Counted from the stretch's first letter, positions 1 to 64,000 are shown. The stretch is DNA of 64,000 nt from Raillietiella orientalis (GCA_036172245.1 JAYWIR010000013.1:2480001-2544000); one strand, 5' to 3'. Notes: generated from the sequence alone by a model not told the origin. Translations and numbers: made by a program.

Positions 1-793
1 CTGTGGTATGTGGGGAAACCCGTATACTGCGGCTTTTGCCAGGTGTCGGGGCATTTAAAAAAGAAATGCCCCAACATCGTGTGCTTGGGCTGTGGGGAGA
101 AGGGGCACATCAGGCGGATGTGCCCCAACCGAAAAGGTCCGTTCCGTCAGGCGCGAGGAAGGAAGAGACGCCGAAGGAAAAGGACCGAAGCCAACAACTG
201 GCAGAATCCCGCCCTGCCGACCAACCCGCTACTCAGGCATCCACCAGCGAACAACCAGCTGGAGAAAGCGCCGAGAACGAGGAAGGTTGGCAGGTGAAAA
301 GGGGAAGAAGCCCCCAGAAGAAGGGAGGCAAAGAAGACCGTGGGCGGGCCAGAAGAACCGATGTGGCTGACGAGGACCCGACGCGTCACCGTGCCGGGCA
401 AGAGCAACGGTGATCGTGCGTCGATTCTGGTCGTCGTCGCCACTGGTGATCACCGTGGTGACATTGTGTTCGCCATTGCCAGAAGGACGTCTGCGCGCCG
501 ATCGATGAAGCCGCCCCTGTCGCGCCTGCGCAAAGCGTCGGTGCGGAAAGCGAGGAGGCGGCGCGCATAACGGACGCGACCTTCGCGCAGGCCGCGGAAG
601 AGCTGGCAACCATGTTACGGCAGTCTGCCAAGGCCGAGAAGAAGGCCTTGAGACGACCGGCAACGGTGAAGGGCCCGGAAAATTCCGAGTCCGAAACCGA
701 AGCCGGTCATTCTCACAACCGTGCCGAAGAGGAAGGCTGGCAAGAAGACCGGTTGCCCGAGACAACCACGTTTACTCGTCAAGGGCTTCGGCG

Positions 794-1870
794 TTGCCAC
801 CCGGGTACGCCCGGAACGTTTATTTATAAAAAACTCTACAATCGCGGTACCAGGCTCCGCTCACGGCCTTATGCACGGGACCTACCGGGACGCCGGGACG
901 CAGCCCGGCGTGGCACTCCCCGGCAGCGAAAGGGGATGGGGAAAAACAAAAATAAAAACAAAAACGCAAACAAACAAATGAGGTTGGAGGGCAGGGAAGG
1001 GATCACTGTTCGCTGAGAGGACGGCCCATCCGTTGAAGGAAGCCCTCTAGGTCCATCCGCATATTCCCCAGTTGGGGCCATCCAGCAGCTCTTCGCAAGA
1101 AGCGTTGGGCATACGGGATGACATCCCTCGCTTGTGGAGCCACTCCTTCGTTTTTGGCGTCGCTCCATGCCGCCACGATGCCACGGAGTCAGCACAAGGC
1201 TGCGATGGCTGCGGCTGGCTGCAGTGTGTCCTTCACGCAGATGGTCCAAAGAACGTCTCTGGGGCTGCTGCCTGTAGGGAGCCAGAGGGTCCTCCCGAAC
1301 CGTTTTCAAAGGGGTCGGAGGGCAGCACAATCCACAATAAGGTGGGGAAGCGACTCCCGCTCCCCGCACCTGGCACACGCAGGATCCACAGCTCCCCTCG
1401 TCCAGTGGAAGCGGCGCGCGTTGCAGGGTAGATCCCAGTGCAACAAAAGCAACGCCGACTCTTGCCACTTGAGGGGGAGGATTCTGGATTCCTTCATCAC
1501 CGGGGGCCACTTCAGCTCATCCCTGGGGATGGCGAGCAGCTCGCCATATCTTAATAATCCTCGCGGCTGGACGCTCGGGGTCGTGGCGTCGGCCAGTTCT
1601 ACTGTTGTCCAGCCGCTGATCAACTTCTCGCGTTCCTCGATGCAGCAGGAGACTTGCCACCTTGGCGTCCGGCTGCTGTGAAGTGCCTTCCTCAGGAAGG
1701 GCAGCGCCGTAGCTAGGCAGGTCGTCTCTACCCACGTGCATCTTGCTGGTCTCTCCAGGAGATTCCGCAGCGTGCAGCGGGCCTAGGGGCTGCATCTAAG
1801 ACGATTTTACGTTTCGATGGTCCTCTGGTTAACCGCTGCCTACGTTCCAATATTCTCCTCCACCCAGGCG
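794..1870 (-). mobile_element. LINE copy B'1, 5'-truncated 3' fragment, antisense in G1 at the GFG site
   Basis: Minus ORF 1306-1623 has the ORF2 C-terminus (LHWDLPCNARRFHW..CARC..HL..C). T-rich 3' UTR. End aataaacgttccgggcgtacccgggtggcaa at 824-794. Confidence 0.9.
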
Positions 1871-2696
1871 GGGGAGTCAGGAACGAGCGGGCATACCTTC
1901 AGGCCCGCCGTTATTCCAGGCGTCCCGACGTCCGTTGCCTGGCAGAATTCAAGGCTGAGGCGGAGAGGCAAGCCTGGCAGTCAGGCTCGGCCTTCTTGCT
2001 GGACCATCAGGGCCAAGAACGCTCCAGCCCAGCTCAGCTAAACCGCATCGTGCGGGAGTTCCACTCCTCCTTGTACGCGCCACTAACACCGGAGCGCCAT
2101 TTCGCGCAGCGCCTAATGCCGGATGGTGCTCCCGCGCTTAAGGAGGAGGATCGTTTCCGGTTGGCGGATCCGTTCACGATGGTGGAGATCATCTTCGTTA
2201 TCGAAAAGCTGAAGAAACGGAAAACACCAGGGGAGGACGGCCTGCCCGTGGAGTTTTACCATCGTTTCGCGCTAGAGCTGGCTCCCCTGGTGCTCAGGTT
2301 AAGTACGCTGATCCGCGAACACGGCGAATTTTCTGCCTGGTTCCGGTCAGCAAAAGTACGTCTCCGGCCGAAATCAGCAGACTTACGCAACTTTGGCAAC
2401 TGGTGTCCCATCACAGTAGTGAATGCGGACGCAAAGTTGTATGCCAACTTGTGGGCTGAGCGTTTGGGGCGGGTGGCCGCTTCCGTGGTGAGTCCCGAGC
2501 AGACCTACGCTGTTCCTGGACGTACCATGGAGGCCAACTTGTTCCTCTCCAACTCATGGTGGCAGTTGCGACAACGCGTTGCTCAGGATGTTCAACGGAG
2601 CCTCGCACTCCCCTCTGACCAAGAAGATCATGCAGAGGATAGGACGGACTCGGCAAGAGCCTTTGCCGTCGCGGTCGATCTGCACAAAGCATTCGA

Positions 2697-4747
2697 TTTT
2701 CACCCGGAATTCTCCGGGTCGTTTATTAAAAAAAAAACTTTCTAACGAAATTATTAATGGCTGTGGCAATGCTCCAGCCAGAAGCTTAGAACAACGAAGC
2801 CTGCCAATTAACCGGTTTCTAGACCTGTACGGTCCACCAAGGCAGCAGGGGAAAGGGGAAAAACAAAAAAACTAAACAAAAAAAAAAAACAAAGGATGGG
2901 AGGGAACGGGAAGGGATCACGGATGCTGCTGGGGCCGCATCATCCCTCTCAGGATGCTGGCAAGCTCTTTTTTGTTATGAACATCCAGGTGGGGCCATCG
3001 CGACGCCCTCAGGAATTGGGAGGCGCACTATATGGCGCCCTGATCGCTAGGTCCTCCCGTCGCCGTGCTCCAGGCGGCGACGATCCCACGAAGGCAGCAC
3101 AAGGCTGCCATCGAAAACGCTGGCCGCAGGGCGTCGGCAACGGAGAAGGATTTTAGTGCGTCCCTGGGATTGCTGCAAGGGATACCGATGGCCGCGGCAA
3201 AGCGGAACCAAAGGGGCCGAAGGGCAACACAGTCCACTAGGAGGTGGGGTAGGGAATCCCGTTCCCCGCACCTTACACAATTGAGATCCACCGCTCCCCA
3301 GGTCCAGTGGTGTCGACAGGCGTTGCAGGGGAGTCCCCAGTGCTGCAACAGGAATGCCGACTCTTGCCATTTTAGGGGGAGGATGGAAGTGTTCATAAGA
3401 ATCGGGGGTCACTTCAGATGTTCAATCGGAACATCCAGCAGCGCTCCCCAGCGCGTTTCACGACGACGCTGCTTTCTTTTAAATTTTCGCTAACCTGCTT
3501 TCTTTTTATTTTTGTTGGCGAGCTTTTTTTAAGTTCGTGGTTTTTTCTTCGACTTTTTTTCTTTTTCGCTGTGACTTCTTGCTATTCCGACACCTGACCG
3601 CTTTTGTCGATCTTTCCGGCATTCGTTGCCGGGGTGTCGGCTGAAGCCTGGACCACGGGAGTGGGTGGCACAGCTTGAGCGGCAGCCTTCGCCGCCAGTT
3701 TTTTCTGTAGTAGCCGCGCGCGTTTTTCTAGGTTCCTCGCAGAAACCACGCGCACAGCGGATTGTGGACACACTTTCCTCGTGTGGCCCATTGTCCCACA
3801 TACCAGGCACTGTACGTTGAGGCACCTCCTTTTGAGGTGTCCCGACGTTTTCAGAAGCCACAGTATTTGGGCTTCCCCACGTACCAGAGGTCGACGCTTT
3901 CTCCGCCGACAACCAGTTTGTGGGGAAGGGTAGAGCCCTCTTGAACGGTTACACGGGCAGCGGTGAGGCGGCACTGAACTGTGGTATAGTCCTCGAAAGG
4001 ACTAGGTTTCGTCCATACTGCATGCACCGTGCCTTCTTTTCCCAACGCGGGCGTAACTGTTCTTTCCGCATCCGCGCGGTAACTCCTAGAAGGTGGACCA
4101 CCATACTGCGGTCCGCCGTAACGGGAAGGAGCCTGCGTCTCCCCATTACCACGGGGGATTTAAGCAGACGTTGGGGCAGATCTGCATGCTTGCAGATCAC
4201 CTCTACGTACTGCACCCCGCTACGAATGGTCATAGCGCAGAGCTCCTCCTCTTTAACATCGAGAGCGCGCATCCCCTTCGAAAAGGCGCGCGCACTCTCA
4301 GAAGAATACAAATTTTCTACTATGTAGAATAGTGATGGGTTATACCCCTCTTCCACATAGGCAGATAATTCCGCCGCGGCTGCAGGCGATGGCGCCGACA
4401 CGACGGCGCTCCACGCCCGCTCTGAAGCGGGGACCGGTTTTGTGCAGGCGGATGCCGCCACCTCCTTCGCTACTGAAGGCGACGTTGCCGCCGCCCCCTA
4501 GCACTCCACCTTCTCTAGAGGCGACGTCGCCTCCGCTACCTGGCGCTCCAACTTCTCTAGAGGCGACGTTGCCGCCGCCACCTGGCACTCCATTTCTTCA
4601 GGAGGCGACGTTGCCACCGCCCCCTAACACGCACTGGTGGTCGTGTCAGGCATTGCTGCCTGATCGATCACCACCACACACGAAGACTACACCAAGGGAC
4701 GGTTCTTGGCAAGAAAAGCACCTAGGAAACACGTCCGCTCTAGCCGA
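2697..4747 (-). mobile_element. LINE copy A1, both ends present with a large internal deletion (~3452), antisense in G1 at RT motif KAFD
   Basis: 5' motif gcggacgtgttt at 4738-4727. ORF1 remnants in 3582-4461. ORF2 C-terminus in 3028-3396. 3' end aataaacgacccggagaattccgggtgaaaa. Degenerate TSD cacaaagcattcga (2683-2696) / cgtaaggcattcga (4748-4761). Confidence 0.9.
4478..4628 (-). repeat. 42-bp tandem repeat (~3.5 units, GGGNVASREVGAPG) in the N-terminus of A1 ORF1
   Basis: Unit ggcgacgt(t/c)gccNccgc..cct(a/g)gc(a/g)ctcca..ttct.. recurs at 42-nt spacing; absent from A2 and A3. Confidence 0.85.
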
Positions 4748-6675
4748 CGTAAGGCATTCGAATGCGTCGATCAGGATCTCCTTCTGAAGCTCTTGGAACG
4801 CATGGGTTTCCCGTCCGTGCTCCGGTCTTACCTGCGCTCCTGCTGGCGCAATGCGTACATAAATATTGGTTTCAGCGGCCGACACGTGTACGGCGTGCCA
4901 GTGCGCCGCGGCATCCGGCAGGGTGACAGCCTGAGCCCCTTGCTCTTCATCATCTTTTTCGAGTTGGTGCTGAGGGCATACAGGGTAACTTTGGCAACTC
5001 TGCCGAGCTCGTTTGCCGACACGCCTGCCGTGTCGGCCTATGCAGACGATCTTCTGCAGCTGCTACCCAGGTACACCCCGGCGAGTGCGCTCGAGTACTT
5101 CTTCGAGTTGCTGCGCCTCGGGACGGGCCTGGAGGTGAACAGCGCGAAGTCATTTATGGTCTTTGTCGGTTCGGCGTGGGATGGACGGTCGGACTGGATC
5201 CGCTTGGGGATCCTTACGGGCTGGTGCTTGAAGTACCTTGGCGTTCCGTTGGGGGACATACGCGAAGCAGAAGCCTGGTCCGACCGTCTCCAAAAGGCAG
5301 CGTTGGCGATCGTTCCGTTCCAGGATAGCAAGTTCTACTTGCAGGAACGGGCCGCGGTGTGGTACGCGTTTGCGGCTTCCCTCCTTCGCCCCCTACTTTT
5401 TGTTTGCCCCGCCCCTTTTTTCTTTTGAAAGCGAGCAGCGCGCCTCCCGAGGACAGTCCTTTGGGGCAAAGGGAGGTCCCGTGTGAGGCTCAAAGACTTG
5501 TGAGTTCCACGTTAGCACGGTGGTCTTGGCGTACTTACGCTGGAGCGCATGGAACTGCAACTCCAATTCAGGACTCTCGTCATCGCGGCCGAAATGTGGG
5601 ACACGCATCGGTGCGTTCCAGCACGCCTCCTGGCCCAACGAGCCTGCGGATCCTGCGGACTTTTGTCGTTTCTGTCTGCGCGCGTCTGCAGAAGAGCACA
5701 CTGTGGCTCTATGCTGCGACGCATCTTCGTTGCGGTTGGGGAGAACGCCTGGATCTCCTGCCTTCCAGGGAACTACTCTGCCTGGTTGCACGAGTCAGTC
5801 TCCACCTGGGAAAGGATCGACGTAACGGCGGGCACAAGGAACACTTGCCTGAAAAGCCACGCCCGCTGGACGCTGCAGGAGATCGTGCAGTCCCACGACA
5901 AGCTTCTGTGGGCCTTGATAACCACCCTCTCTTCAGTGCTGGCCTTCCTTGTGAATGCCAGGGACAGTAAGGAGCAGGGGAAATGGACTGTGTCCTGCAC
6001 CATAGGCGGCAGGACACAATTGATAAAGGCGTGGACATCTCGGCAGCTAGCGGAGGCTGCAACGCCGAGTGTCCCGCCCAACGGAATTCGACGCTGGGGC
6101 GAGCTACTCGTTCTATCTCCGGAGGAGATGAAGTGGCCCCCGGCGTCCTGGAACAGTGGATCCCTTTCCCTTAAATGGCAGGAGGTGGCGTTGCTTGTAA
6201 TGCATTGGGGTTACCCTGTAAAGCACGCCTGTATCACATCACCTAGGGGGCTGTGGATCCCCAGTGCGACCGGTGCAAGGAAAAAGAGACCTTCCCTCAC
6301 CTTCTCATTGAGTGCAGAGCCATCCGCCTTTTATGGGATCGCCTTACGGCGATCCTGGACTTGCGCGGATGCGGCCCCAAGGACGTTTTCAGGCGCCTCT
6401 TCTGTAGTGACGCCTTGTTCCCCCCGCTTCCGCTTGTTCCCCTCCCTGCCCTCTTATCCCTAAAACATTTATCCCCTCCCGTATTTCAACTTTTTATTTG
6501 TTTTGTTTTTTCTGTCCCAACCCCCGCTCATCGGAAGGACCTCTCCTGGCTAGCGCCGGCAACCAGCAAGCTGTTTTGGCGTGGTGCACCTTAGTGTTCT
6601 CCACTGGAAAAATTAATGTATTTCTATTTTTCGAAATAAATGCCCAGGCATATCCGGTTGAAAACCGCAGTGACG

Positions 6676-9389
6676 GCAGACGTGTTTTTTTTGCTGCTCT
6701 CGCGTTTTAGCGCGATTTTGTAGGTTGTGTGGGTTTCGGGCGGTGTTTTGAAGGCAGAAATACCTGAGGACACCGCCAGTGCAAAAAAGGGGGACGGGCG
6801 AGCCTCCTCCCCTCAGCCCATGGATGTGGGGACCATCTCCCCCACAGATTCGTCCCCCTCCCCGGCGAGGGCTTGGAGTGCGGTGGTGGCGGCTCCCGCG
6901 CCGCCACCATGCGAGGAACAAAGGGCCTATGAGTCACACGGATACAGCCCGGCCCTACTGTATAAGGCAGGTGGGCTTTATTCTCCCGCGATATTGAGAA
7001 CGTTTGCCGCGGAATTTAAAAAACTGAAAGTGCCGGAAGAAGTTCTCGGGCTTTCTGTTCGCAGTGGCGGTCAGCTAGTCGAGCTGAACTGCAGAACTGC
7101 AGGAATGACTCATCAGTTGCTGAGATGCCCGGTGACCGTGAACGGGAGAAGGGTCTTCCCGTTTACTGCCGATAAATCGATCGTCATCCATTTGACTGGG
7201 GTGACGATGTGAATGGCAAAAAATGCCGTTAGGAAGGAACTGGAAAAGTACGGGACCGTCCACTCTCTTTGGGCTAAGCCGAACACCCTGGGCTTTACTA
7301 GGGCGTTCAGTGGCTATGCCGCCGCGCGTGTGACAGTCCGCGAGGATAGTGGTTTACCCCACCGACTACAGGTCGATGAAGAATACATCGATCTGTGGTA
7401 CATAGGGAAACCCAAATTTTGCGGAAACTGCGAGACTACAGGGCACCTTAAACGGAGGTGCCCCAACATCGTGTATCTACGCTGCGAGAACAAGGGCCAC
7501 GTGAGAAAGCTGTGCCCTCTTCGTTTTGCTTCCACTCCTGTTGGCAACAAGAGAACAGAGTCGCCACAGGATCCGGACAAACAGGATCCCCCATCGGGTG
7601 AAACCTCCCAACCAGGCGAGAAATGGACGCCTGTGGAACTAAAGCCGGAGGAAGGCGAAACACTTGCCGAAAACAGTTGGCAGTCAGTGAAGAAGGAAAG
7701 CATGGGGAAAGGTAAGGTCCCTAAGAATACGGTGAAAGTGGTGGGGAAAACCGTCCGCCGTTCCACCGTACACATCGATCGCGTTCCCGCGAAGGCTTCA
7801 ACCAGCAAGCCATCGATCGATACTGCAGCTGCGGCGTCGATCGATAAAGCGGTTCCGGCCCCGTGCGGCGAAATCGCCACGGTCGCCATCGATAGCGCGG
7901 CGCACGCTGCCGCGATCGATACTGTTGTTTCAGTCTTGTTAACTGGAAGCGTTGTAGCGGCGAGCGAAAGCTCAGCTGCGGCTGTGCCGAACGATGGAGC
8001 GCCGGTTGCCGCTATCGAATCGGTTGTTACGTCACCGGACACGCCAACAGGCGGCGAAATCCGTGATGAGGTGAAATGCATCTCGGATGCAAGCTTCCCG
8101 CAAGCCGCGAAAGAGTTGGCTGCCTTCTTGAGGCAGTCCGTGAAGGTCGAGAAGAAGGCCGTTCGACGCCTGGCTACGGCGAAAGACCCGGAAACTTCCG
8201 AGTCTGACGCCGAAACCGGGAAATCGTCCTCCGTAGGCTTGCCGAAGAGGTAACTGAAAAATGCAATGGGAGCTCGTAGGCGTGCTTTCACCTCTCAGGA
8301 AGAAGTCGAAATGGCATCCGACGGCGAGGAGGAGTCCATGTGCGTTGCACAATGCGACTCCGCGCCTGAGAGCATCCTTGTCCAGCTGCTAACACAGTGA
8401 TCGGCCGGCGGAATGCGCTATGCTCCTGAGCATTCCGACGACATGGACCCGGACCACCCGTCTTCTGAACAGGAGGCGGTTTCCTCCACCCCACCATACC
8501 AACACCATTGCGTGGACTCGCCTCCTCTCGCCGCTTGCGACTAACATCTTAGAACGTCAACGAGTTGAGCAGCGACGGGAAGAGGCGAGACGAAGCCGCC
8601 ATTCTGCGAGACTTCGACTGGCGGTACTACAAGAGACTCACATGCTCACAGCAGAAGCAGACCAGGATTTCGAAAGAATCACAGAATGGCGGTTACTGTG
8701 GAGGAACGGAACAGATTTCTTCTTCAAAGTGGCCTATCTGCTGAAGCCGGCCGTCGACAACTCACTGCGAAGCGCTCGGTTTGACGGGGACGGTCGAGTT
8801 AGACAACTTGTTCTCAAGTGGTCCGATTCGATCGAACTTGTGGTGACGAACTTATACGCACCAGTGAGCAAGCACAAAGCCGAAGAACCAACTGCGTTTT
8901 TCGAATCCCTGCAGCGAGACTGACTAGCTGAAGCTGGCTTACGGAGGGGGCACCTCATTGCAGGCGATTTCATTCTCCGCCTACTGGCAGGTGTCCTTAA
9001 CAGACGAGCACAACTGGTCAACGAGTTGTTTGCAGTAGTGACTGCGCGCAACCTCTTGGCCGGTGATGCAGGGAGAGGTCGGAACATCGACCACATGTTC
9101 CTCGACAACCACCTGTGCACGCGGATGGGAACTCGAGGAACGCTCCCAGCATAGCTGTCCGACCATCCACGGCTCACGCTCGAGTTAAATCCGCGAAATA
9201 AGGGCCGTCCCTTGAAAACATGACGTCTGCCAGGGCACTGTTTGCGACTCGCAGGAACGGTGGAACATCTGCGCGCCTTCCTGAGAGGAGTTCATCTTGA
9301 GACGCTCGCGGGCTGGGACGAAATGAAGTGCTCAGTCCGCAAGTTTTGCAACCAGTTTCCCCTGGAACGTCTTACGCCGGGTTTCGGCG
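6676..9389 (+). mobile_element. LINE copy G2, 5' portion (ORF1 + degenerate APE), cut by B'2 at GFG
   Basis: 5' motif gcagacgtgtttttttt at 6676. ORF1 6727-8253 has an in-frame stop at 7210 and a knuckle CGNCETTGHLKRRC. APE remnants (LQETH, TNLYAP, AGDF, IDH) in 8600-9389. Confidence 0.9.
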
Positions 9390-41045: not shown

Positions 41046-41050
41046 CGCTC

Positions 41051-51400: not shown

Positions 51401-53106
51401 CGTCGGTGGTGCCAGTAGGTGCGGCGTGGGCAGGGCAGCAGGACTGGGTCCGTCTGGGGATCCCCACGGCGAGGTGCCTCAAGTACCTTGGTGTGCCGTT
51501 GGGTGACTACTCCCCTGCGGAAGCGTGGTCCAGCTGTCTTCAAAAAGTTGAGACGGCGATCGGCCCGTTCCTGGAAGGCAAGTTTCACTTGCCGGAACGG
51601 GCCGCGGTTTGGAACGCCTTCGCGGCCCCCATCCTCCGCCCCTTGCTTTTTGTTTGCCCCGCCCCAAGAGTAGTTAAAAAGAGGACGAAGGACCTCCTCC
51701 GCATCGCCCTTTGGGCCAAGGGGAGGTCCCGAGTCCCTCTGCAGGACTTGTGCGCTCCGCGTCGGGACGGCGGCCTTGGCCTCCTGACGCTGGAGCGGGT
51801 GGAAATCCAGCTGCGGTGGCGAACCCTCGCCATTGCAGCGAAGATGTGGAGCACCCCTTGGTGCGTTCCGGCCCGCCACCTCGCCAGGCGTGTTTTCCGA
51901 TGCGAAGGACTCGCGTAGTTTGTTCTGTGCCCTGGCCGGAAGATCCGAAGATGCGGCCTTATGCTCGGACGCCTAGCAACCTTGGCGAAGACGAACGGTT
52001 GGATGGTTTGTGGCCCCGCCAACTCCTCCGCCTGGTTAGAGGAGTCTGCTGGCACATGGGCTAAGCTGAACCGGAGGAGTGAAAACCACATGAACTGCCT
52101 GCGAATCGGCCCATACGCCAACCGCACTCTGCGGGAATACTGGTATTTCCTCGGAGTCGCAGGTGGGCGTTGATTACCCCCCTTGCTACGGCGATGCCCT
52201 ACCTCCTGAGGGCGCTTAAGGATCGCCAGAAGCCGAGGTGGCAAGTCACCTGCCAGATCGCAGGCAGGGAGAAGATGTTAAGAGGCTGGACCACAGGAGA
52301 ACTGGCGGACGCCACGACCCCGAGCGTCCAGCCGCGTGGATTAATGAGACGGGGCGAGCTGCTCGCCATCCCTACGGATGTGCTGAAGTGGCCCCCGGTA
52401 CTAAAGGAATCCAGGATCCTGCCCCTCAAGTGGCAAGATTCGGCGTTGCTACTGCTGCACTGGGGTTTACCCTGCAACCCACGCCGCTTCCACTGGACAA
52501 AGGGAACTGTGGATCCTGAGTGTGTCAGGTGCGGAGAGCGGGAATCGCTCTCCCACCTTATTGTGGACTGTGCTGCCATCCGACCCCTCTGGGAACGGTT
52601 CGGGGCGACCCTAGGGCTCCCTACGAGCAGCAACCCCAGAGACGTTCTTCGGCCCCTCTTCGTGAAGGACGCACTGCAGCCAGCCGCAGCCATCGCAGCC
52701 TTGTGCTGTGTCCGTGGCATCGTGGCGGCATGGAGCGACGCCAAAAACTAAGTAGTGGCTCCACAGGCGAGGGATGTCATTTTCTACGCCCAACGCTTCA
52801 TGCGGAGAGCTGCCGGATGGCCCCAACTGGGGAATATACGGACGGACCTCAAGGGCTTCCTTCAACGGATGGGCCCTCCTCACAGCGCTCAGTGATCCCT
52901 TCCCTGCCCTCCAACTTCTTTTTGTCTGTTTATTTTTTATTTTTCTTTTTGTTTTATCCCCATCCCCCTTCGCTGCTGAGGAACGCTACGCTGGGCTGCG
53001 TCCCGGCGTCCCGGCAGGTCCAGTGCATATGGCCGTGAGCGGGGCCTTGTACCGCGGATGTAGAGTTTTTTAAAAAATAAACGCCCCGGGCGTACCCGGG
53101 TGTAAA
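42411..53106 (+). mobile_element. LINE copy B2, full-length but degenerate. Segments 42411-44717 and 49761-53106; hosts F.
   Basis: 5' ttggaggacgtgtttt. ORF1 42500-44249 is frameshifted. APE is split at GDFN. RT in ORF 50332-51918. 3' end aataaacgccccgggcgtacccgggtgtaaa. Confidence 0.92.
44718..49760 (+). mobile_element. LINE copy F, both ends present, RT core deleted (~48050), sense insertion in the B2 APE GDFN motif
   Basis: 5' gattgcggacgtgttttt. ORF1 44796-46719. TAATG at 46717. APE 46719-48026 and ORF2 C-terminus 48008-49447. 3' end aataaacgccccggcgtgaccgggtgataa. Perfect 9-bp TSD atttcaatc at 44709-44717 / 49761-49769. Confidence 0.93.
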
Positions 53107-54621
53107 CCTCCGTGGTGGTCCACATGACCGGCATCACCAGCCGCATGACGCGATCAGCGGTTGTTGAGGAATTAAGAAACTACGGTGAGGTGCACGCACT
53201 GTGGCCGAAACCCTCCATTTTCGACGGCTTCGATAGCCTTTTTGGTGGGCAGGCTGCAGCGCGGGTCACCGTACGCGAGAATTGTGGGCTTCCCCACAAA
53301 CTACAGGTGGCGCAAGAAAACGTCGACCTGTGATATGTAGGGAAACCCCGGTATTGCGGGCATTGTGATACCGTGGGACACCTACGTAAAAGGTGTCGCA
53401 ATATACAATGCCATTTGTGCGGGGAGCGGGGCCACGTTCGGCGCGTGTGCCCCAAACGCCCCACCCCGGTTCCCCCTGCCGCGAAAAAAGCGCAGGGGAA
53501 ACGCGCTTCAAAGGTCTCCAGACCTTAAGTGGAAAATTTGCCAGCACAAGCTGCCAACACCTCAACCTCCGGCGCGTAAGCCGAAGGATAAACCTTCTGA
53601 AACGGTGGAAGGCGAAGAGGGATGGCAGCTTGTAGAGGCCAGAAAGCCAAGGAAACTCCCACCCGCGGAGAGCAAAGAGCGCAAGACGGCCGGTAAGCCG
53701 AAAAAACCCGGTCCGCGTTCGAAAACTCTGCGCGAGTGCACGGTGGCACTAGAACGAATCGTCGTTCCCGAGATTGCCACCCGGAGCGTCGATCCTTCCC
53801 TTGCCGTTTCCGCTGCGCCCGAGGCTCGTAACGGCGAACCCTCTGTTTACACAGAGGGTGAGCCGCGCGACATAGCGGCAGTCGAAGTCGCGGACGCCGC
53901 GTTCGCGCAGGCGGCGGAGGAGCTCGCGTTTACGCTGGCCGAGCGTGAGAACCCCTCGCGCAAGGCCGTGCGAAGGCCGGCTCCGGCGAGGAAGGCCCCC
54001 AAAGGTGAGTTAGACCTGGGGGCCGGAAGCACATCATCCTCCTCGGAGGCACCCCCCAGGAAGTCGGGACGCAAGTCCCAGAAGCCCAGGAGGCGCCTCC
54101 CCTCCACCAGCGAGGAGAAGACGGAAGCCGTCGCCAGCGTGGGAAATTCGGAGGAGGAATTCCCATGCTCGGAAGCCGTCGCTCCGGCCACCCCCATGGA
54201 GGAGGGTGAACAGGGGGGTGAAGTTCCCCCTGCAGGCGCCGACCCTGAACACCCCGCCCCCATGGAGGAGGGCGATCAGGTAGGCGCGACCCCACCTGTG
54301 GGTGACCCGCTCGATGTACAGTTTCCTATGGAGGAGGGGGAGCAGGTGCCTTCAGCACCTGACCCCCCTCCTCCACCTAGCGTCCCGCCCCAGCAGGTGG
54401 CGGACGCCGCACTGCCATCTTCCCAGGAGTAACACCTGGGCTCGCCAGTCGCCGTCGGATTCGCGCCGCCTGTTGGAATGTCAACGGACTGCGCGACGAC
54501 GGTGACAGGCGAGTTACAGCCGACATCCTGCGGGAGTTCGACATGGCCCTGTTTCAAGAGATCCATGTGATCACCGCGGCAGACGTCCACGAGATCGAGG
54601 CCATCGCAGGGGGTCGGCTGT
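53107..54621 (+). mobile_element. LINE copy B3, internal fragment (ORF1 from SVVVHMTG to the APE start), cut by E'2
   Basis: Closely matches B2 42924-44438; TAACA junction at 54430. Confidence 0.9.
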
Positions 54622-55058
54622 TTGTCACCCGGTTGCGCCGGGGCGTTTATTACAAACTATCCGGGAACAGAGTTTCCGGACAAAGGGGAAAACAAGAGAG
54701 GCAGGGGGTGGGATCCCCGACACGCAGGTCGGTATGCTGAATGTCCGGAACGTGAGGGAGGGGACCACAAATACACTACTATGAAAAATACAAATAAAAA
54801 TATGGAGGGCAGGAGACAGGGGGCTTTGGTGAGTCCGTTCCTTCCTTTCAAAAAAGGCGATGGATGCCGGCGATCTCTCTCCTTAATTCCTCTGGAAGAT
54901 GGGCCCACTCGGCAGCCGACGACATTCTTTCGCTCTCTAATCCGGTGGGCTGTCGAACGATGGCCAGCTTCTCCAACTCTCGGTGGGCCTTGTCGATGGC
55001 GCGGGTGCAACACACGGTTGCAACGACAGCACCTAAAGACAGGCCGCCTGGCGTGAAG
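54622..55058 (-). mobile_element. LINE copy E'2, short 3' end, antisense in B3 APE at GGRL
   Basis: Homologous to E'1 38963-39395. 3' end aataaacgccccggcgcaaccgggtgacaa. Confidence 0.88.
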
Positions 55059-55755
55059 AATCCAGGATCCTGCCCCTCGAGTGGCAAGAGTCGGCGTTGC
55101 TCCTGTTGCACTGGGGTCTACCCTGCAACGCGCGCCGCTTCCACTGGACGAGGGGAGCTGTGGATCCTGCGTGTGCCAGGTGCGGGGAGCGGGATTCGTT
55201 CCCCCACCTTATTGTGTTTTGTGCTGCCCTCCGACCTCTTTGGGTACGGTTCGGGACGACCCTCGGGCTCCCTACAGGCAGCACCCCCAGAGACGTTCTT
55301 CGGCCCTTCTTCGTGAAGGACGCACTGCAGCCAGCCGCATCCATCGCAGCCTTCTGCTGTGTCCCTGGCATCGTGGCGGCATGGAGCGACGCCAACAACG
55401 AAGGAGTGGGTCCACAGGCGAGGGATGTCATCCCGTATGCCCAACGCTTCTTGCGGAGAGCTGCCGGATGGCCCCAGCTGGGAGATATGCGGAGAGACCT
55501 CAAGGGCTTTCTTCGAAGGATGGGCCCTCCTCACAGCGACCAGTGATCCCTACCCTGCCCTCCAAACTCTTTTTGTTTTTTATTTCTTTATTTTTCTTTT
55601 TGTTTTTTCCCCTCATCCCTTTTCGCTGTCGGGGAGTGCCACGCCGGGGTGCGTCCCGGTGTCCCTACAGGTCCTGTGCATAAGGCCGTGAGCGGGGCCT
55701 GGTACCGCGATTGTAGAGTTTATTAATAAACGCCCTGGTCGTACCGGGGTGGCAA
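55059..55755 (+). mobile_element. LINE copy B'4, 3' fragment, antisense to G3 at GFG
   Basis: ORF 55097-55546 is the ORF2 C-terminus with zinc finger. 3' UTR like B'1. End aataaacgccctggtcgtaccggggtggcaa. Confidence 0.9.
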
Positions 55756-56183
55756 CGCCGAAGCCCGGCGGGAGACGTTCCAGGCGAAACTGATCGCAAA
55801 ACTCGCGGACTGAGCACTTCATTTCGTCCCAGTCCGCGAGCGTCTCAAGATGGAATCCTCGCAAGAAGGCGCGCAGGTGTTCCGCCGCTCCTGCGAGGCG
55901 CAACCAGTCCCCCGGCAGGCACCACGTTTTCAGGGGATGGTCCTTGTCGCGTGGATGTATCTCGAGCACGAGCCGTGGATGCTCGGACAGCTGTGCCGGG
56001 AGCGTTCCTCGAGTTCCCCCCTGCGTGCACAGGTGGTTGTCGAGGAACATGTGGTCGATGTTCCGATCTCTCCCGGCATCACCGGCCAACAAGTTGCGCG
56101 CGTTGATGGCTGCGCACAACTCGTTGACCAGTCGTGCTCGACTGCTGGGCGCACCCGCCAGAAAGCGGAAATTGGAGTCCCCG
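55756..56183 (-). mobile_element. LINE copy G3, APE fragment
   Basis: GDSNFRFL..NIDHMFLD..LSEH..LPPGFG in minus ORF 55613-56299; homologous to G2 8960-9389. Confidence 0.85.
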
Positions 56184-56390
56184 TTATTTCTCTTTTTGTT
56201 TGTTTTTTGTTCTACTTTTCCCTTCCCATGCGCCTCGGGAATGGACCTAACCGATCTATGCACCGGCAACAGACACGTCAACCAAGGTGGGAAAAGCAAG
56301 TGTTTCCCACAACCAACTTTTGAAAGACTTTATTACCTAATTTTTGTAACAAATTAGAATAATAAATGCCCCGGCATATCCGGGTGACAA
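56184..56390 (+). mobile_element. Isolated LINE 3' UTR (copy H, G-related)
   Basis: T-rich tract, hairpin gtgggaaa/tttcccac, and end aataaatgccccggcatatccgggtgacaa resembling the G1 end. Confidence 0.8.
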
Positions 56391-58153
56391 ACGTCGGCTG
56401 GAGCCGAGCATTCCCGGTCCTGGTCGTCGAGCAGAACTGTCGCCCCTGACTGCCAGACCTGGCGCTCGGTCTTGGCCTTGTACTCGGATAATCGACCAAC
56501 GTATGCGCGCCTGGAAAAGGAGCAGGCCTGCAGAAAATCTCTGCTGTTATCTACGCCCTCTCCGGAGCCGCGCGGAAACTGGTGCAAGGGAAACCGGCAG
56601 CAGAACTCGCGGACCGATCTTTCAGATCGTTCCAGTCAGCGAGCTCACTTATAGCGAAGCCGCGAAGGTACTGGCGAAGATGCTAAGCCGCCTCCGGGTA
56701 GCTTAGCCAGTCTGTCGGCATCCTCCAAAAACAGTTTGGAGGCCCCTTGCCTGGCGGAAGCAACTCGAACTCGAGCCTGTTGTGGTCTGAAAGCACGGAC
56801 GGCACGGAACCTTTCCGACCAACTCGAGAGAGCAAGTGTTCATCAAGGTATACGTGGTCCAGCGTTGCTGTTATAACAGGGTCGCTAGCGAACAAGTTGC
56901 ACGCGTGCACGGACGCGCACATCCCTTCCGCTAGCAACTTTTCTTTTTTGTGGGATCTATTCTCGGAAAGCAGGTATACGTTAAAGTCCGTCGCAATGAG
57001 ATAGGACACAGTAGGCTAAGATCGAGTGAGCCACTGGCTTTGACCGGTACCGAAGAACTCAATCCTTTCGGCCCATCGTCCAGCACCGCTCGGCGCGTAC
57101 ACGTTGGTTACGACAAGGTCGATCGAGTCGGACCACTTGAGTACAAGCTGTCCCACTCGGCCTTCCGTGTCGAAACGAACGCTTGGCACCGCTCCCGCCA
57201 AAGTTCCTCGCACGAGGAAAGCGACGCCGCAAGTACGTGCAACGCCGCACCTATAAGGTAGCGTTCCGCCCGCGCGCTGTTCGATTTCGGCAGCCTGCTC
57301 TTCGGAGATGCTGTGAATATCCTGCAGGAGCGTCAAGTCGAAGGCGCGCAGAGCGTGAGCCACTAGTCGCCTCTTCTCCTCGTGTTGGAGCCCGTTGACG
57401 TTCCAAGACGTCACGGTAGCACGACGAGAAGACGCTATTGCCCTCATCACGGCTGGGAAAGCAAGGCCGCGGTGCTCGCCTCACCCGGCGAGCGGGCAGT
57501 AAGAAGCACGAAGGGCTGGAGAACCCGCTCACCACCGGTCTCAACTGTGCTGCACGTAATCGAGTGCTCCTACCCGGGTGCAGAACCTGTAGGTTCCGGG
57601 GTGAGCACTCGCCATTCTGCGGCGAGTGTTTCACGCGTCAGGGCTTTAGCCCTGCGGACGGTCGCTCCCGCGCGAGTAACGCGTCGTTCAGCGACGCTAT
57701 CGGACTCCATTGCGGAGTCTGAAGCTCGCACGATCGACGTGCGCTTCCATTCGTCCGATTGCACCGGAATGGTCTTCTCGGCGGTCACAGGAGCGGACTT
57801 CCACGCGTTGAAGGCGCTGGCTTTTTCCTGGGAAGAGGCACAAGCTGCGCGTGTTTTCGTATTCGCGCGACTGCTTTTCCCTTTGGAAGAGCTCGGGGAT
57901 GCATGTTGCGGAGCTTTTTTGGAGATTTTTCTTTCCTACTCTCCACAACCTTCCATTCGCCTTCGCGATTTTTGGAGGCTTCCGCGACAGTAGTGCGGAA
58001 ACCTCCGGGATTTTCGCTACGTAATCAGGGAGCGCTGCTTTCGCTACGTCTTTAAAAGGCGGCAACGTAGTCACCTTCTTGACAGTCGGGAGATTGCTCC
58101 TCTCCTGCCGAGTCGGTAAACTTGCTTCGCGGCTGAAAGTATTGTGCGCTTGA
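56391..58153 (-). mobile_element. E/F-group LINE internal fragment (ORF1 C-terminus + APE)
   Basis: TGATG junction at 57449-57445. APE motifs WNVNG, LQD, NVYAP, TDFN, LDH, SDH in minus ORFs 57016-57450 and 56683-57009. Confidence 0.88.
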
Positions 58154-61100
58154 TTTTCACTCGGATTTCTCCCAGTCGTTTATTAAAAACATAAACTTTG
58201 TAAACAAATTATTAATGGCTGTGGCAATGCTCCAGCCAGAAGCTAAGAACCACGGCGCCTGCCAATACACCGGTTTCTAGACCGGTACGGTCCACCAAGG
58301 CAGAAGGGGAAAGGGGAAAAACAAAAAAACTAAACAAAAAAAAAAAAGGGTGGGAGGGAACGGGAAGGGATCACTGTTGCTGCTCGGGCCGCATCATCCT
58401 TCTCAGGATGCTGGCAAGCTCTTGTTTCTTGTGAACATCCAACTGGGGCCATCGCGACGCCCTCCTCAGGAATTCGGAGGCGCACTGGATGGCTTCCTGA
58501 TCGCTAGGTCCTCACGTCGCCGTGCTCCAGGCGGCAACGATCCCACGAAGGCAGCACATGGCTGCTATGGAGGACGCTGGCCGCAAAGCGTCGGCAACGA
58601 AGAAGGCTTTTTAGTGCGTCCCTGGGGTTGCTGCAAGGGATACCGATGGCCCCGGCAAAGTGGAACCAAAGGGGCCGAAGGGCAACACAATCCACTAGGG
58701 GGTGGGGGAGGGACCCCCGTTCCCCGCACCTTACACAATTAAGATCCACCGCTCCCCAGGTCCAGTGGTGTCGACGGGGGTTGCAAACGAGTGCCCAGTG
58801 CTGCAACAGGAATGCCGACTCTTGCCATTTTAGGGGGAGGATGGAAGTGTTCATAAGAATCGGGGGCCACTTCGGACGTTCAATCGAAACATCCAGCAGC
58901 GCTCCCCAGCGCAGAAGTCCATCAGGAGGCGTACTCGGGGTCGCAGCATGAGTTAGCTGACCCGTCTTCCACTCTCTCTGCTTCTTCTTCTTCCCGGAGA
59001 TTTTTATTGTAACCTCCCACTTCGCCGCAACATCGCTGTCCTGATGTTCCACTAGGGAGTCAAGCGCAGCAGCGAGGGGGGTTCTTCCTCACCACACTCT
59101 CTTCTTAGGATCCTGCAGGATCTCACGGAGCGTGCAACTTTTGTAACACCCAAACAGGAACCTTCGTTCCTGATGGGAGGGTTGCATGCCGAACTGTCCA
59201 CACGTACGAACGGTTTCCTGCAACCAGGCACTACCGTTCGCGGGGGAACAGGTGATCCATCCTTGATTCTTCCTTGCCAGCGCAGCAACCCTCCGTAGCT
59301 GAAGCCCACATCGGTTGATGCGGCTTCGATGGAGTGCAAGAAACGACGTGAGTCCCGACTTGCCGGTGGCTTGCTGAAGGAGGAGACGTGCAGGGACCCA
59401 CCAATAGGTGCACCACAACTCCGGCACAAGTGCCAAACTCCGGAACTGGAGCTGCAGCTCCAGCCGCACCAATGTCAGGAGGCCGAGACCACCGTCCCTA
59501 CGCGAAAGCACAAGTCCTTCAAGCGGACTCGGGCCCTCCCGTTGCCCCAAAGGGCGATACGAAGGAGTTCCTTTGTCCGCTTTTTGATCCTCTCTGTGGG
59601 GGGGGCAAACAAAAAGCAGGGAACGGAGGAGAGGAGCCGCGAACATGTTCCAAACCGCGGCCCGTTTAGGCAGCAAAAACCTGCCGCCTCGGAACGGGCC
59701 GATAGCCGTCTCTACTTTTTGGAGGCAGCCGGACCACGCTTCCGCAGGAGAGTAGTCCCCCAACGGCACACCAAGGTACTTGAAGTACCTCACCGTGAGG
59801 ATCCCCAAACGGACCCAGTCCTGCTGCCCTGCCTACGCCGCACCAACTGGCATCACGGACGACTTCGCCCTGTTCACCGTAAGCCCAGTTCCTCGATTCA
59901 GCAGGTCGAAGAACTTTTCGACCGCCGAAGCCGGGGTGGACATAGGGAGCAGCAGCAGGAGGTCGTCCGCATATGCTGAAACCGCAGGCGTTTTGGCTCA
60001 TTCATGAGGCAGGTGCGCCAGAGTTTCCCTGTACGCTTTCAGTACCAATTCAAAGTAGGTACTGAAGGGCAAGGGGCTCAGGCTGTCTACTTGCCGGATC
60101 TCACGTCGCACCGGCACGCCGTGAACAGTATGCCCGCTGAAAGTAACATTAATTAGCGCATCGCGCAGCTAGAGCGCAGATAGGCCAATAATGAGGCCGG
60201 GAAGCCCAAGCGTTCCAAAAGCTCCAGAAGGAGATTCTGGTCGACGCTGTCGAATGCTTCACGCAAGTCGACAGCGACGGAAAGTGCTCCCTCCTCCATC
60301 CTACCATCCGTCGCATGACTGACGGACTCACCGGAATTCCCGGTGCGCATCAAGCCCCTTTCGTGTTGGAGCTCTAGCCAGGTGGAAGCGTGGAACAGGT
60401 TCGCCTCCATGCTTCGCCCCGGAACAGCATACGTCTGTTCCAGGCTGATGAAGGCGTTTGCAACCCGTCCCAAACGCTCAGCCCAAACCTTAGCTATCAA
60501 CTCGGCATCCGCATTCACAATTGTGATGGGACGCCAGTAGTTCATGCTCCTCAGATCTCCTCCCTTAGGGAGAAGCCGCACCTTTGCCGAACGAAACGAG
60601 GCGGGAACGTCACTTGTCTCGCGTATCAGCAAGGTGAGTTGATGTACCAGGGGGGTTAGCTCAGCCGCGAAAGTTTGATAAAACTCCGCGGAAAGGCCGT
60701 CCTCCCCTGGAGCCTTTCGCCTCTTCAGCATTTCGATGGCCGAGATGATCTTGCCCATCGTGAAAGACTCGTCGAGGGGCTTTCTCTGCTCCTCCCCGAT
60801 CGCAGGAGCGCCTTCCAAAAGCAGGATTCGTGAGAAATCCCGCTCGGGAGGCGTTCTTGCGTACAGGGAGGAGTGAAAATGCCGCAGCAGACCGCGGATC
60901 TTAGCGGGTGCCGCATGCTCCTGGCCCTGATCGTCCAGCAAGCTGGCCGATCCTGACTGCCAGGCTTTCCTCTCGGCTCCCGCTTTGTATTCCGCCAGCC
61001 TGCGGATGTCGGGGGTCCTGGCGTAACGGCGAGCCTGCAGATAGGCTCGCTCGTTACGTACCCCCTCCCCAAATCCCGCAGGTAGGCGGTGCAGAGGGAA

Positions 61101-61806
61101 CTGGTCGCAGAACTCCTGGACCGACCGTTTAAAGGGGTCCCAATTCTGAAGTGTCTGAATCCTAAAGCTCCGTATAAACGTGCGGAGATGTTCCGTCGCG
61201 TCCGGGAGCTTCAGCCAGTCCCCTGGCAAACGCCACGCTGACGAGGGAAGGTCTCTGTCGCGCGGATGGATTTCAATCACGATTGGTCGATGGTCGGACA
61301 ACTCGCACGGTAACTTGCAGCGCCTGCCCACACGAGTGCACAGGTGCTCGTCTAGGAACACGTGATCGATGTTGTCCTCCATCCCTGGTACACTGGCCAA
61401 CAAATTACAAGTGTGCACCGCCGCGCACACCTCGTTGACCAGGTCACGCTCGTGATTCGGACCATCCGGTTTCAGACGAACGTTAAAATCGCCTGCAGCC
61501 AGATGGGCATTCCGCACGCCTGCCTCGGCCAACCAGTCGCGATGGAGGGCGAGGACAAATTCTTTTCTGGCCCTCCTGTTCGTCAGGTCGGCTCCGCTCG
61601 GGGCGTAAACGTTCGTAACGATCAGCTCCATCGAGTCGGACCAGCTGAGAGTCAGCTGGCCGACACGACCGTGATCGGCGAACCGAACTGCACGGGCGGC
61701 GGCCTCGACGGCGGGCCGAAGCAGGTAGGCGACACCACTACTTCTCGATGTTCCACACCGATACCACAGCCGCCCTCCGTAGATGCGTTCGATCTCCTGC
61801 GCTCGT
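58154..61806 (-). mobile_element. LINE copy A4 (most of ORF2 + 3' UTR), cut at EQAQ by E2
   Basis: Minus ORFs 60153-61631, 59089-59808 and 58504-59052. 3' UTR nearly matches A1. End aataaacgactgggagaaatccgagtgaaaa. Confidence 0.9.
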
Positions 61807-63165
61807 ACAGTGCAGACGTGTTTCCGCGTCTATCCTCGCCAACGATCGGGCAACTTTGTGCCTGCGTTTTCGCTCGCACTTGTGTGTTCCTGTGCAATCA
61901 GCCAAGTAGCATAGTGCAACATGGCCAGTACACAGGATAGTGTGGAGGAGCAAGCCACTGGATGCACTTCAGCTGCACTTGAAGTGGCCGCATCCTCCGT
62001 AATGGTTACCTCGCCCCCGGTGAGGACTTACGCCGCCGTTACCTCCCAAAGTCCAGGAACCTGCGATGCGGAGTTCCAGGCATATGTGTCATCAGGATAC
62101 ATGCCTGCACTCCGTTATAAGGTCGGTGGGCCACTTCACGGGAGAATCGGTCGTGAGCTCAATGATGAGCTCGTCCGGATAGGCGTTCGCGAGGAGGAAC
62201 TTGTTGCCATAATGCCTGCTGGCAGGATGGAATATACGAAGATTCGGTGCAAGAACGCAGCACTTTTGCAGCGCCTTCTCCGTACGCCGTTGACCATCAA
62301 TGGCAAGCAAGTCCTACCTACGGCGATGGACGACTCTTTTGTCGTTCAATTGTGCGACATCGAACCGGAAATTTCCGACCGCGATGTCGTAAGTGTGCTG
62401 GCGAAGTTCGCCACCGTGCACGCTCTGTGGAGGAGGCCGAACCCTTTGAAGAATTTCTCCTCTGTCCACATCGGACAAGCCTCCACGCGGATCACCGTCG
62501 CGAACAGGCGTGTTGTGCCTGAGCAGCTGCAGGTGAACGGCACGGTCGTTCACCTGTGGTTCATAGGCCAGAATCGCGCGTGCGAGCAGTGCGGGAAGGA
62601 GGGGCACCGAATTAAAGAGTGCCCCTCACCAAGATGCCGCTATTGCAAAGATTCCGGGCACGAAATCAAAAAGTGCCCGGTACTTGCAAAAAAAGAGCCG
62701 CAGCGGAAATTCGTCGGGTTCAAGAGACCACAGCACGAAAAGCCGCAGCGGCGAATAAAAAACATCTTCCGCAAAAACTCGAAAAAAACCACGAGCGATC
62801 CACGGATAAAAAGAAAGCATCCCCGCCCGCAACGCCCCGAAAGGGGATAGTCACGGCGGGGAAGCCAATTAAAAAGGAGCGCGAGGGTTTGACGCGTGCC
62901 GTGCCTTCCCTCTCTGCCGAACTCGCAAGCACCTTTCCGAGCCTGGAACCAGGAAATCTCCGTAACACCCTGGAGGGAAAGGTAGGAAAACAGGAAGATC
63001 GCAACAGTGCGAAGACTTCTTGCCCCGTTCCGTTGTCCCTTCCGAGTTCCGGACAACCCCACTGCAGCGCAGGCCCCACTGCAAAGGCTACGAAAGCCGT
63101 AAAAAGCAGCGTCGCGACGAGCAAAAGCACGCTGCATGCAGTCGCCCCATCGCCGACTCGGCAGG
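61807..63165 (+). mobile_element. LINE copy E2 (E/F group; link to E1 inferred), 5' portion with ORF1, antisense in A4 APE
   Basis: 5' gcagacgtgtttcc at 61812. ORF 61921-62850 with CEQCGKEGHRIKEC and CRYCKDSGHEIKKC, homologous to F ORF1. Confidence 0.88.
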
Positions 63166-64000
63166 TTTCCCCAAGTCCCACAAGGGGTGGGGTAAGTTTA
63201 TTTTTCTATAAAAATACAAAATTTACATTCGCACCCTCACTCACTCAATACAATTATTTTGCACTTGGGAGTCCTTGGGTTGCACTAGAGTTCTGCTTTT
63301 CAGGGGGGAATTCCAGCTGGATGGTCCCGGGCGTCGTCCTGGATCCTCTTCAGGATGAATCGGTACGTCCAGGCGTGGATCTTCCCGCAGTTCCTGATGC
63401 CGATTTCCCTCTACAAGAGCCCTTGTAGGATCTCCATCGGTGGTGCGGCTCTCCTGGCTTTCCTCATTTTCCACCACCGCACAAGTATGGCGGTGATGAA
63501 GAGGGCTATGTTCGTCCTCACCATGGGATTGTAACAGGGAACATTACCATCCCCATGAAACATCCCGGCGAGGATCTCCATAACGGACTTGTTGGTAAGT
63601 CCTATGATCCTTTTCAGGATCAGCCAGTCATGCAGCAGTGTGGGACATGTCAAGACGTGAAGTCTTGTGTCGTCGTCTCCACATGCTGCGCAGTCTCGGT
63701 CTTCCCGTCTTCCTGTAAAGTGCTGCAATCGGGACCCACTCTGGATTCCTCCGTGATAAAACATCAGGAGGTCATCCTGGGTGCCCGGCGAAAGGTCACT
63801 CCTCCAGAGCGTCGTGCCGATCGCTAACAGGTTGAACCGTTCACTCCCGTAGCGTTCGGTGGCTTCCTGGAGGGCACTGGTGTCACGGTCGTTTTCTTGG
63901 ATAAACCTTCGGAGGTTTGTTCTGGTTACCCTCGACCATGCGAAGTCGTTGTGGTTGAACCACACTTCGCGGGTCCTGTGGGTAAACCTTCCTAACATCA
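63166..64000 (-). mobile_element. Divergent LINE (family X), 3' end; runs off the window
   Basis: Minus ORF 63411-63998 with CAACGDDDTRLHVLTC, a LINE C-terminal CCHC finger unlike the other families. End aataaacttaccccaccccttgtgggacttggggaaa. Confidence 0.7.

Follow-up and report, generated by a model that had tools for sequence, protein, structure and literature searches.

Family-specific insertion sites of nested LINEs within one another's coding sequences in a 64-kb island of Raillietiella orientalis

A 64,000-nucleotide stretch of the Raillietiella orientalis assembly (GCA_036172245.1, JAYWIR010000013.1:2480001-2544000; hereafter the window, with positions counted from its first letter) was analysed for its long interspersed elements (LINEs) and for the sites at which these have inserted into one another. 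The window is an island made up only of LINEs; these probably represent related lineages of the L1 group with endonucleases that each cut at a different sequence within the open reading frames (ORFs) of the others. The anatomy of the elements, their target-site duplications (TSDs), a nucleotide-identical and orientation-fixed recurrence of junctions, the independence of the insertion events and the match between site occupancy and target motif were all observed. A first-pass annotation, made from the sequence alone, had claimed that junctions recur by family, and every junction that it listed was present. Its wider proposal, that the families target each other's coding sequences, stood with respect to family- and sequence-specific targeting within the window, but not with respect to exclusivity, as one copy of family A lies off its site and families B and B' have also hit their own kin.

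Nested LINEs with an apurinic-type endonuclease (APE) and a reverse transcriptase (RT) fill the entire 64 kb, in which G+C lies at 54-63% throughout and there are zero N, and in being nested in their own kind they are Zepp-like. In a tblastn search against the window, the three frames of one element, C (ORF1a, ORF1b and ORF2), tiled it near-completely on both strands as pieces of ORF1 and ORF2. The longest open frame (19796-23449, 1217 codons) is C ORF2, which gave Pfam matches to Exo_endo_phos (E 9e-11) and RVT_1 (E 7e-19), the latter being found in other frames of the window also. Against solved structures (PDB) its top match was human L1 ORF2p (E 2e-44), with R2 proteins at 2e-11 or worse. 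The elements, whose ORF2 codes for an APE endonuclease at the N-terminus and also for an RT, are thus APE-type LINEs of the L1 group. ORF1 matched zf-CCHC at 23.6 bits (cut-off 20.8), and the Cys-rich end of ORF2 scored 21.1 bits for zf-RVT, under the cut-off of 27.5.

Sixteen elements end in the same 3' anatomy, namely AATAAAYG, a CCCGG-loop-CCGGG hairpin and TG followed by 2-6 bases ending in A, at 795, 2697, 9391, 15407, 30427, 38964, 54623 and 58153 on the minus strand and at 6664, 23655, 29881, 36077, 49760, 53105, 55755 and 56391 on the plus strand. Poly(A) is absent from all 16 of these ends, which stop 2-6 bases past the hairpin. When the 16 ends were aligned, four consensus pairs were retained in 13-14 of 16 and a double change was seen in one pair only, so that the support for the stem-loop is conservation of sequence and not covariation. 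A conserved terminal stem-loop common to the copies fits LINEs of the stringent type, and the hairpin looks like a 'stringent' signal recognised by RT. Grouping of the 3' ends by their last 400 nt placed 795, 9391, 29881, 53105 and 55755 together as B/B' (78-96% identity), 2697 and 58152 (92%) with 36077 (72-74%) as A, 15406 as A' (65-69% to A) and 38963 with 54622 as E' (83%), leaving C, E, F, X and #15 as singletons. TSDs range over 8-17 bp. In the five complete insertions that show one, its length is 9 bp for F, 10-11 bp for A, 12 bp for E1, where the repeat is perfect, 16 bp for A' and 17 bp for C. B1 has a degenerate TSD of ~12 bp, and the 5'-truncated B'#1 shows microhomology in place of one.

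A full 5' end with the word ..GG-ACGTGTTT.. was found in nine or ten elements; the full-length 5' ends with this word lie at 4734 on the minus strand and at 6680, 11495, 12836, 36945, 41059, 42418, 44726 and 61816 on the plus strand. The 5'-terminal word, ..GG-ACGTGTTT(T/C).., stands 8-19 nt from the junction, occurs also in C at 17756, and is common to full-length copies of families that are otherwise only 45-70% alike, and could serve all of them as an initiator or promoter element.

The junctions of five families recur, and positions of the sites in ORF2 were obtained by mapping onto the intact ORF2 of C. Three of four events of family A are at KAFD (aa 590-593), at 2697/4750 in element X, 11479/36078 in B'#4 and 41046 in E'#10, the A junctions (3' or 5') lying at the same host nucleotides in three different hosts and always antisense. 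All three 3' junctions of family B' are at GFG (aa 313-315), where 794, 9390 and 55755 abut ..TTYGGCG of X, D and Dx, again antisense. One 5' junction, that of Bx at 36941, is compatible with the same site, as its distance from the point in B'#4 at which GFG is nicked is 17-18 nt in the upstream direction, an offset that fits a TSD of the size seen in other insertions. Both events of E are at EQAQ (aa about 72-75), at 30426/32428 in A1 and 61807 in A#16, and the 5' junctions of E1 and E2 coincide at one host nucleotide. Both 3' ends of E', at 38963 and 54622, abut ..TCGGCTG at GGRL (aa 86) of two B-like hosts, exactly as had been claimed. Family B was found three times out of three at the motif CCYTCCRYGG (12829/29882, 42411 and 53106). 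The 5' junctions of B1 and B2 lie 5-6 nt past CCCTCCACGG in A1 and CCTTCCGCGG in A2, and the 3' end of B2 abuts CCTCCGTGG in the ORF1 of a B-family copy, B3, at a position not homologous to the A1/A2 site. For each family, orientation to the host is constant at its canonical site. Single events, each at the place previously reported for it, were found for A' (TLRNL), C (NADAKL) and F (GDFN).

Occupancy of the sites was compared with the local nucleotide sequence. The GFG word TTYGGCG is present in 6 of the 12 copies that cover the site, and four of these six are occupied, as against none of the six without the word. Likewise, TCGGCTG occurs in 4 of 11 copies covering GGRL, two of which are occupied, with none occupied among the seven that do not carry it, and the EQAQ word AGCGCARGA is restricted to two copies, A1 and A#16, each of which is occupied, as against none of eight other copies. 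At KAFD three of nine copies are occupied, and the word ARGCRTTCGA occurs seven times against 0.64 expected, every occurrence being at the KAFD codons. Under a null model of random position and orientation (a 6-kb target element, two orientations, +-10 bp), the recurrences have p of ~1e-5 for A (3/4), ~3e-6 for the three B' 3' junctions and ~1.7e-3 per pair. The occupancy figures support the view that site choice follows local nucleotide sequence. Families A, B, B', E and E', with one copy of A off-site, thus behave like sequence-specific APE LINEs, in that copies which arose separately share a target fixed to the nucleotide and carry a TSD. The KAFD target of X, reconstructed from 2687-2697 with 4752-4766, is a perfect 12-bp palindrome; since the KAFD site in B'#4 is not palindromic, this is probably incidental.

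Such recurrence could be envisaged without stringent target choice if chromatin or a tethering factor drew the elements to this region and a weak endonuclease preference did the rest, the recurrent sites being simply the best matches in a small region. Regional attraction has been assumed for centromeric Zepp, ZeppL and Celine. Celine is a centromere-restricted LINE that lacks sequence specificity, each copy being described with a unique TSD (PMC11288735), Zepp clusters are reported at one per chromosome (PMC3446292), and in the window the off-site A copy at 58152 still lies within the island. A loose preference, however, would give many different sites across 64 kb of LINE sequence, in contrast to the nucleotide-identical and orientation-fixed junctions of five families and their shared targets of 10-17 bp. 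The B motif is instructive in this respect, as the 10-mer occurs only three times on both strands of the window (128 kb; 2.1 expected), twice at B 5' junctions and once at B1's own ORF1 site, the homologue of which in B3 carries a B 3' junction, so that B junctions lie at, or are homologous to, all three. We therefore consider regional targeting to be an unlikely source of the recurrence.

Recurrent junctions could also be inherited, if segmental duplication, unequal exchange or gene conversion had replicated a few original ones. ZeppL arrays of Chlamydomonas are described as expanding and contracting in the manner of satellites (PMC9977147), rearranged junctions do occur in the island, and some blastn alignments cross junctions, for example 8963-10086 with 56182-55056. 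Equal divergence of host and insert, which the first-pass annotation had named as the sign of segmental duplication, was looked for and was found at none of the recurrent sites. The KAFD hosts X, B'#4 and E'#10 belong to different families and are 58.6-60.7% alike, while their A inserts are 72-83% alike. At the B site the hosts A1 and A2 are 83.4% alike and the inserts B1 and B2 93.5-94.2%; at GGRL the hosts Bx and B3 are 73.5% alike and E'#10 and E'#13 84.1%; and at GFG the hosts D and Dx are 84.3% alike and B'#4 and B'#14 78.9%. Moreover, B'#14 is nearest not to B'#4 but to B'#1 (89.4%), which sits in a different host, X. At EQAQ, E1 is 5'-truncated at aa 663, in contrast to E2, which has a full 5' end, and yet both lie at the same host nucleotide. 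As host and insert divergence differ at every recurrent site, the recurrence is not due to segmental duplication, and we hold inheritance of junctions by any of these routes to be very improbable.

An explanation to which we give equally little credence is that composites were mobilised together, a host already carrying its insert (for example A with B) having been retrotransposed whole and the inner junction copied with it. It would account for A1 and A2 each holding B at the same ORF1 position while each sits at KAFD. In contrast, the A parts of the two are 83.4% identical and the B parts 93.5-94.2%, the 3' flank of B2 is B3 and not A2, and the recurrences at KAFD, GFG, GGRL and EQAQ in unrelated hosts would be left without explanation. 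Sliding identity between 11100-15406 and its look-alike, which again speaks against duplication, was 52-69% in the hosts, ~84% where the alignment runs through A and ~94-95% where it runs through B. Two further candidates were rejected. A duplicated block or 5' transduction comprising 11251-14518 and 40815-44098 was ruled out by the 52-69% identity to the left of the A 5' end, and RT template switching as a source of the junctions was ruled out by anatomy, the inserts being mostly antisense, with their own termini and TSDs.

We thus favour family-specific targeting, and the following course of events would produce the island. Successive target-primed reverse transcription would have been carried out by at least ten related lineages (A, A', B, B', C, D/X, E, E', F and G), each nicking one strand of its own 8-17-bp sequence, which lies in ORFs belonging to other lineages or, at times, to its own relatives. 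The cDNA would be primed on the hairpin-ended RNA, and a second nick 8-17 bp away would give rise to the TSD. Because the targets lie inside LINEs, each new copy lands in an old one, and repeated hits would build up a nest with occasional head-to-tail neighbours. By analogy with Tx1L, R1Bm and TRAS (PMC4640811, PMC6719617), the APE domain is the likeliest reader of the target, ahead of some other part that binds DNA and of pairing by read-through RNA. The endonuclease domains of the families are 42-73% identical to each other, which leaves room for differing specificities. As for which family hits which, A is found in X, B' and E'; B' in D, X and B'; B in A and B; E in A; E' in B; A' in B; C in A'; and F in B.

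Tiling by tblastn and self-alignment gave the order of the nests. On the left, H0 (1..794, +) is an A-like ORF1 fragment, identified by tblastn and by comparison of its flank with A1, the last ~40-65 nt of which are a stub of X terminating ..GGGCTTCGGCG (GFG). X (1878..6664, +; ORF2 aa ~316 to the 3' end) holds B'#1 (795..1877, -; 5'-truncated at ORF2 aa ~930, antisense at GFG) and A-del (2698..4750, -; both termini of family A, antisense at KAFD, TSD 10-11 bp), and its 3' end adjoins the 5' end of D. In A-del, ORF1 aa ~350 is joined to ORF2 aa ~1039; tandem repeats lie just inside its 5' region (4477-4630, 42 nt x 3.7).

The main nest begins with D (6665..9390, +; 5' end to ORF2 aa 315), which is interrupted at GFG by B'#4. 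The 3' part of B'#4 (9391..11478, -; 3' end to aa 590) resumes at 36078-36940 (aa 593-315), and B'#4 is itself host to A1 at KAFD and to Bx at GFG. A1 starts with its 5' end and ORF1 (11479..12829, +), resumes at 29882-30426 and 32428-36077, and holds both B1 and E1. B1, inserted in the sense orientation at CCCTCCACGG (5' part 12830..15406, +; resuming at 26860-29881), holds A', antisense at TLRNL with a 16-bp TSD (3' part 15407..17755, -; resuming at 23656-26859), and A' holds C (17756..23655, +), antisense at NADAKL with a 17-bp TSD and the youngest element by nesting. E1 (30427..32427, -; 5'-truncated at aa 663) occupies the EQAQ site of A1 in antisense and is flanked by a perfect TSD of 12 bp. 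The other occupant of B'#4, Bx (36941..38962, +), is B-like with a full 5' end, 72-73% identical to B, and is interrupted at GGRL by E'#10 (38963..41045, -; 3' end to aa 589). E'#10 hosts A2 at KAFD (5' part 41046..42411, +; 83.4% to A1), A2 is interrupted at CCTTCCGCGG by B2 (5' part 42412..44716, +; resuming at 49761-53105; 93.5-94.2% to B1), and B2 holds F (44717..49760, +), which is in sense at GDFN with a 9-bp TSD and has both termini without ORF2 aa ~446-752.

To the right, B3 (53106..54621, +), a B-family fragment starting from its own ORF1 CCTCCGTGG site, adjoins the 3' end of B2 and is interrupted at GGRL by E'#13 (54622..55054, -; 84.1% to E'#10). The truncated 5' end of E'#13 adjoins that of B'#14 (55055..55755, +; aa ~1060 to the 3' end), which is antisense at GFG of Dx (55756..56182, -), a D-like ORF2 fragment (aa 315-175; 84.3% to D). 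Next comes #15 (56183..56391, +), a short piece with an X-like 3' hairpin end that adjoins Fx at aa ~375. Fx (56392..57738, -) consists of an F-like ORF2 N-terminus with its upstream spacer, and appears to hold A#16 (58153..61806, -; 3' end to aa ~72; 84.7% to A1; 3' flank off-site). The 415 nt between Fx and the 3' end of A#16 (57739-58152) had no other match within the window by blastn or tblastx. A#16 hosts E2 at EQAQ (61807..63160, +; full 5' end and ORF1), with its 5' junction at the host nucleotide used by E1; the ORF1 of E2 is 68% identical to that of F, and the 3' part of E1 is 69% identical to F. The last 840 bases (63161..64000, -) belong to G, a further LINE that is more distant from the rest; its 3' hairpin is of another kind (AATAAAC, then CCCCACCCC..GGGG), and its ORF2 ends in a Cys-rich stretch near 63650-63780.

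Several observations weigh against family-specific targeting in its simple form. The A copy at 58152, although its 3' end is 92% identical to that of the copy at 2697, is not at KAFD; its flank shares six of nine target bases, and this 3' end lies, apparently in sense, in the 415-nt spacer upstream of the F-like ORF2, inside the island. The claim that A inserts at KAFD therefore held for three sites and failed at the fourth. For B, previously assigned to one site in ORF1, the same CCYTCCRYGG motif was present in all three cases, but in two non-homologous ORF1 contexts; B2 has A2 as its 5' flank and B3 ORF1 as its 3' flank (53105/53106), and with these mismatched flanks it must be a chimera or rearranged. 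The truncated 5' ends of E'#13 and B'#14 meet head to head at ~55054, Dx adjoins the ~200-nt piece #15 with its X-like hairpin at ~56183-56300, and the 3' end of X adjoins the 5' end of D head to tail at 6664/6665. Such joints break simple nesting, so that the island has also been shaped by rearrangement; copies may have recombined, one target may have been hit more than once, or priming may have been double-ended. Bx (36941) and E2 (61807) are 5' parts that do not overlap the 3' copies of B' and E, and their family labels are inferred from the site and from similar distances to B and F.

To these may be added that A', C and F are represented by one event each, that most motif-bearing sites are empty (six of nine at KAFD), and that, as the window is all LINE, insertions outside LINEs would be invisible here. 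The part of the protein that would read the target is, moreover, assigned by analogy. A refuge in conserved motifs is not a general explanation of where the targets lie, since target sites are not enriched for conservation; the possibility that they are the most conserved motifs was ruled out, the identity of 15-nt windows at the seven ORF2 sites falling at percentiles 29, 35, 60, 12, 27, 90 and 76.

Some features of individual elements are recorded here. A-del (2698-4750) and F (44717-49760) have kept their termini and TSDs in spite of large internal deletions, through which F lost its RT core, and both have the look of non-autonomous derivatives that were mobilised in trans, or else of copies that lost sequence once inserted. 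A public run (X1) shares 0.14 of sampled words with the window. One of its contigs, at 80% likeness, links 44708 to 49761 with nine letters fitting either side, its shorter side being 21 letters, under the caution level of 30; X1 contigs of F, 98% identical, enter the flanks by 29 and 19 letters, where 31 are needed for bridging. The linking contig is a hint, and only that, of an empty F site in B2. In C, ORF1a and ORF1b are separated by a single in-frame stop (19137-19139; region 18060-19862), and B1 spans the equivalent region as one frame (13182-14603). C ORF2 starts in a different frame from ORF1b with a 67-nt overlap, there being no ATG ahead of the endonuclease motifs, and tandem repeats lie just inside the 5' region of C (18001-18113, 24/48 nt x 4.7/2.3). 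Among 5.8 billion proteins searched, homologues of C ORF2 at E <= 1e-10 numbered six, the nearest being 25% identical and bearing no useful name, and an Atlas search with it returned RVT/APE clusters with taxa absent. A scan of metagenomes by the 3'-end pattern returned 16 loci, none of which resembled the LINEs of the window by blastn or tblastn, and these were chance matches.

By analogy with the Zepp clusters of algae, the island may be a safe haven, and possibly a centromere. A bolder reading, which we advance tentatively and with slightly more doubt than conviction, is that of a closed 'ecosystem', in which sister LINEs would have turned their endonucleases, time and again, onto 8-17-bp words in each other's ORFs, the LINE population then being its own only habitat, and in which this web builds and renews a LINE-only island that is perhaps a centromere. 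Knowledge of site-specific LINEs has so far come target by target. If family-specific targeting is true, the window would offer a natural series of APE endonucleases that are closely related (42-73% identical) and yet differ in their long recognition sites, and such close relatives could be used to map the APE residues that set specificity, which is relevant to programmable insertion. It would also provide a concrete mechanism for the origin and confinement of LINE-only islands of the Zepp type, and would show transposons occupying other transposons as their niche, with a host range among families.

Parts of this picture have precedents. Tx1L and Tx2L of Xenopus are given a fixed site in the DNA transposons Tx1D and Tx2D (PMC6719617, citing Christensen et al. 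2000) and a preference of transposable elements for their own kind is already in print (PMC6719617), 'transposons' appear among the listed targets of LINEs (PMC4640811), and insertion of Zepp into existing Zepp copies has been described (PMC8226300, PMC3446292, PMC9940879). Family-specific sites are not mentioned in the passages retrieved from the texts on the Chlorella centromere (PMC11005252), Chlamydomonas v6 (PMC9940879) and CENH3 (preprint 10.1101/2025.03.28.645958). Full-text literature searches, whose coverage did not extend to the original Zepp papers (Higashiyama 1997, Yamamoto 2003) or to Repbase reports, turned up no account of several LINE families that each target a fixed site within the rest.

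Compared with these systems as their sources describe them, the elements of the window resemble Tx1L and Tx2L in being APE-type LINEs with a specific target inside another transposable element. In contrast, the targets here are the coding sequences of sister LINEs, and at least five related lineages each have their own site. With Zepp of Chlorella and Coccomyxa and ZeppL-1_cRei of Chlamydomonas they share GC-rich islands consisting nearly wholly of nested L1-group LINEs. However, those clusters are described as single-family, whereas many diverged families with family-specific sites are found here, and a poly(A) tail is given for Zepp and L1-1_CR (PMC3472496, Table 1), while the elements of the window end in a hairpin with no poly(A). 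A nucleotide-precise target, a TSD, a stringent 3' end and a multicopy safe haven are features in common with R1 and R2 in ribosomal DNA and with further site-specific LINEs from the R1 and Tx1 clades (PMC4640811, PMC1919474), but those elements target host genes or simple repeats, and in the window it is the LINEs themselves that provide the multicopy target. Celine, which colonises the centromeres of poplar, is similarly a LINE that gathers in a single chromosomal compartment, with frequent nesting (PMC11288735); its unique TSD at each copy points to regional targeting, in contrast to the recurrence of the same TSD sequence in the window. Thus while site-specific APE LINEs and Zepp-type nesting were known already, what appears to be new here is several families with their own sites in each other.

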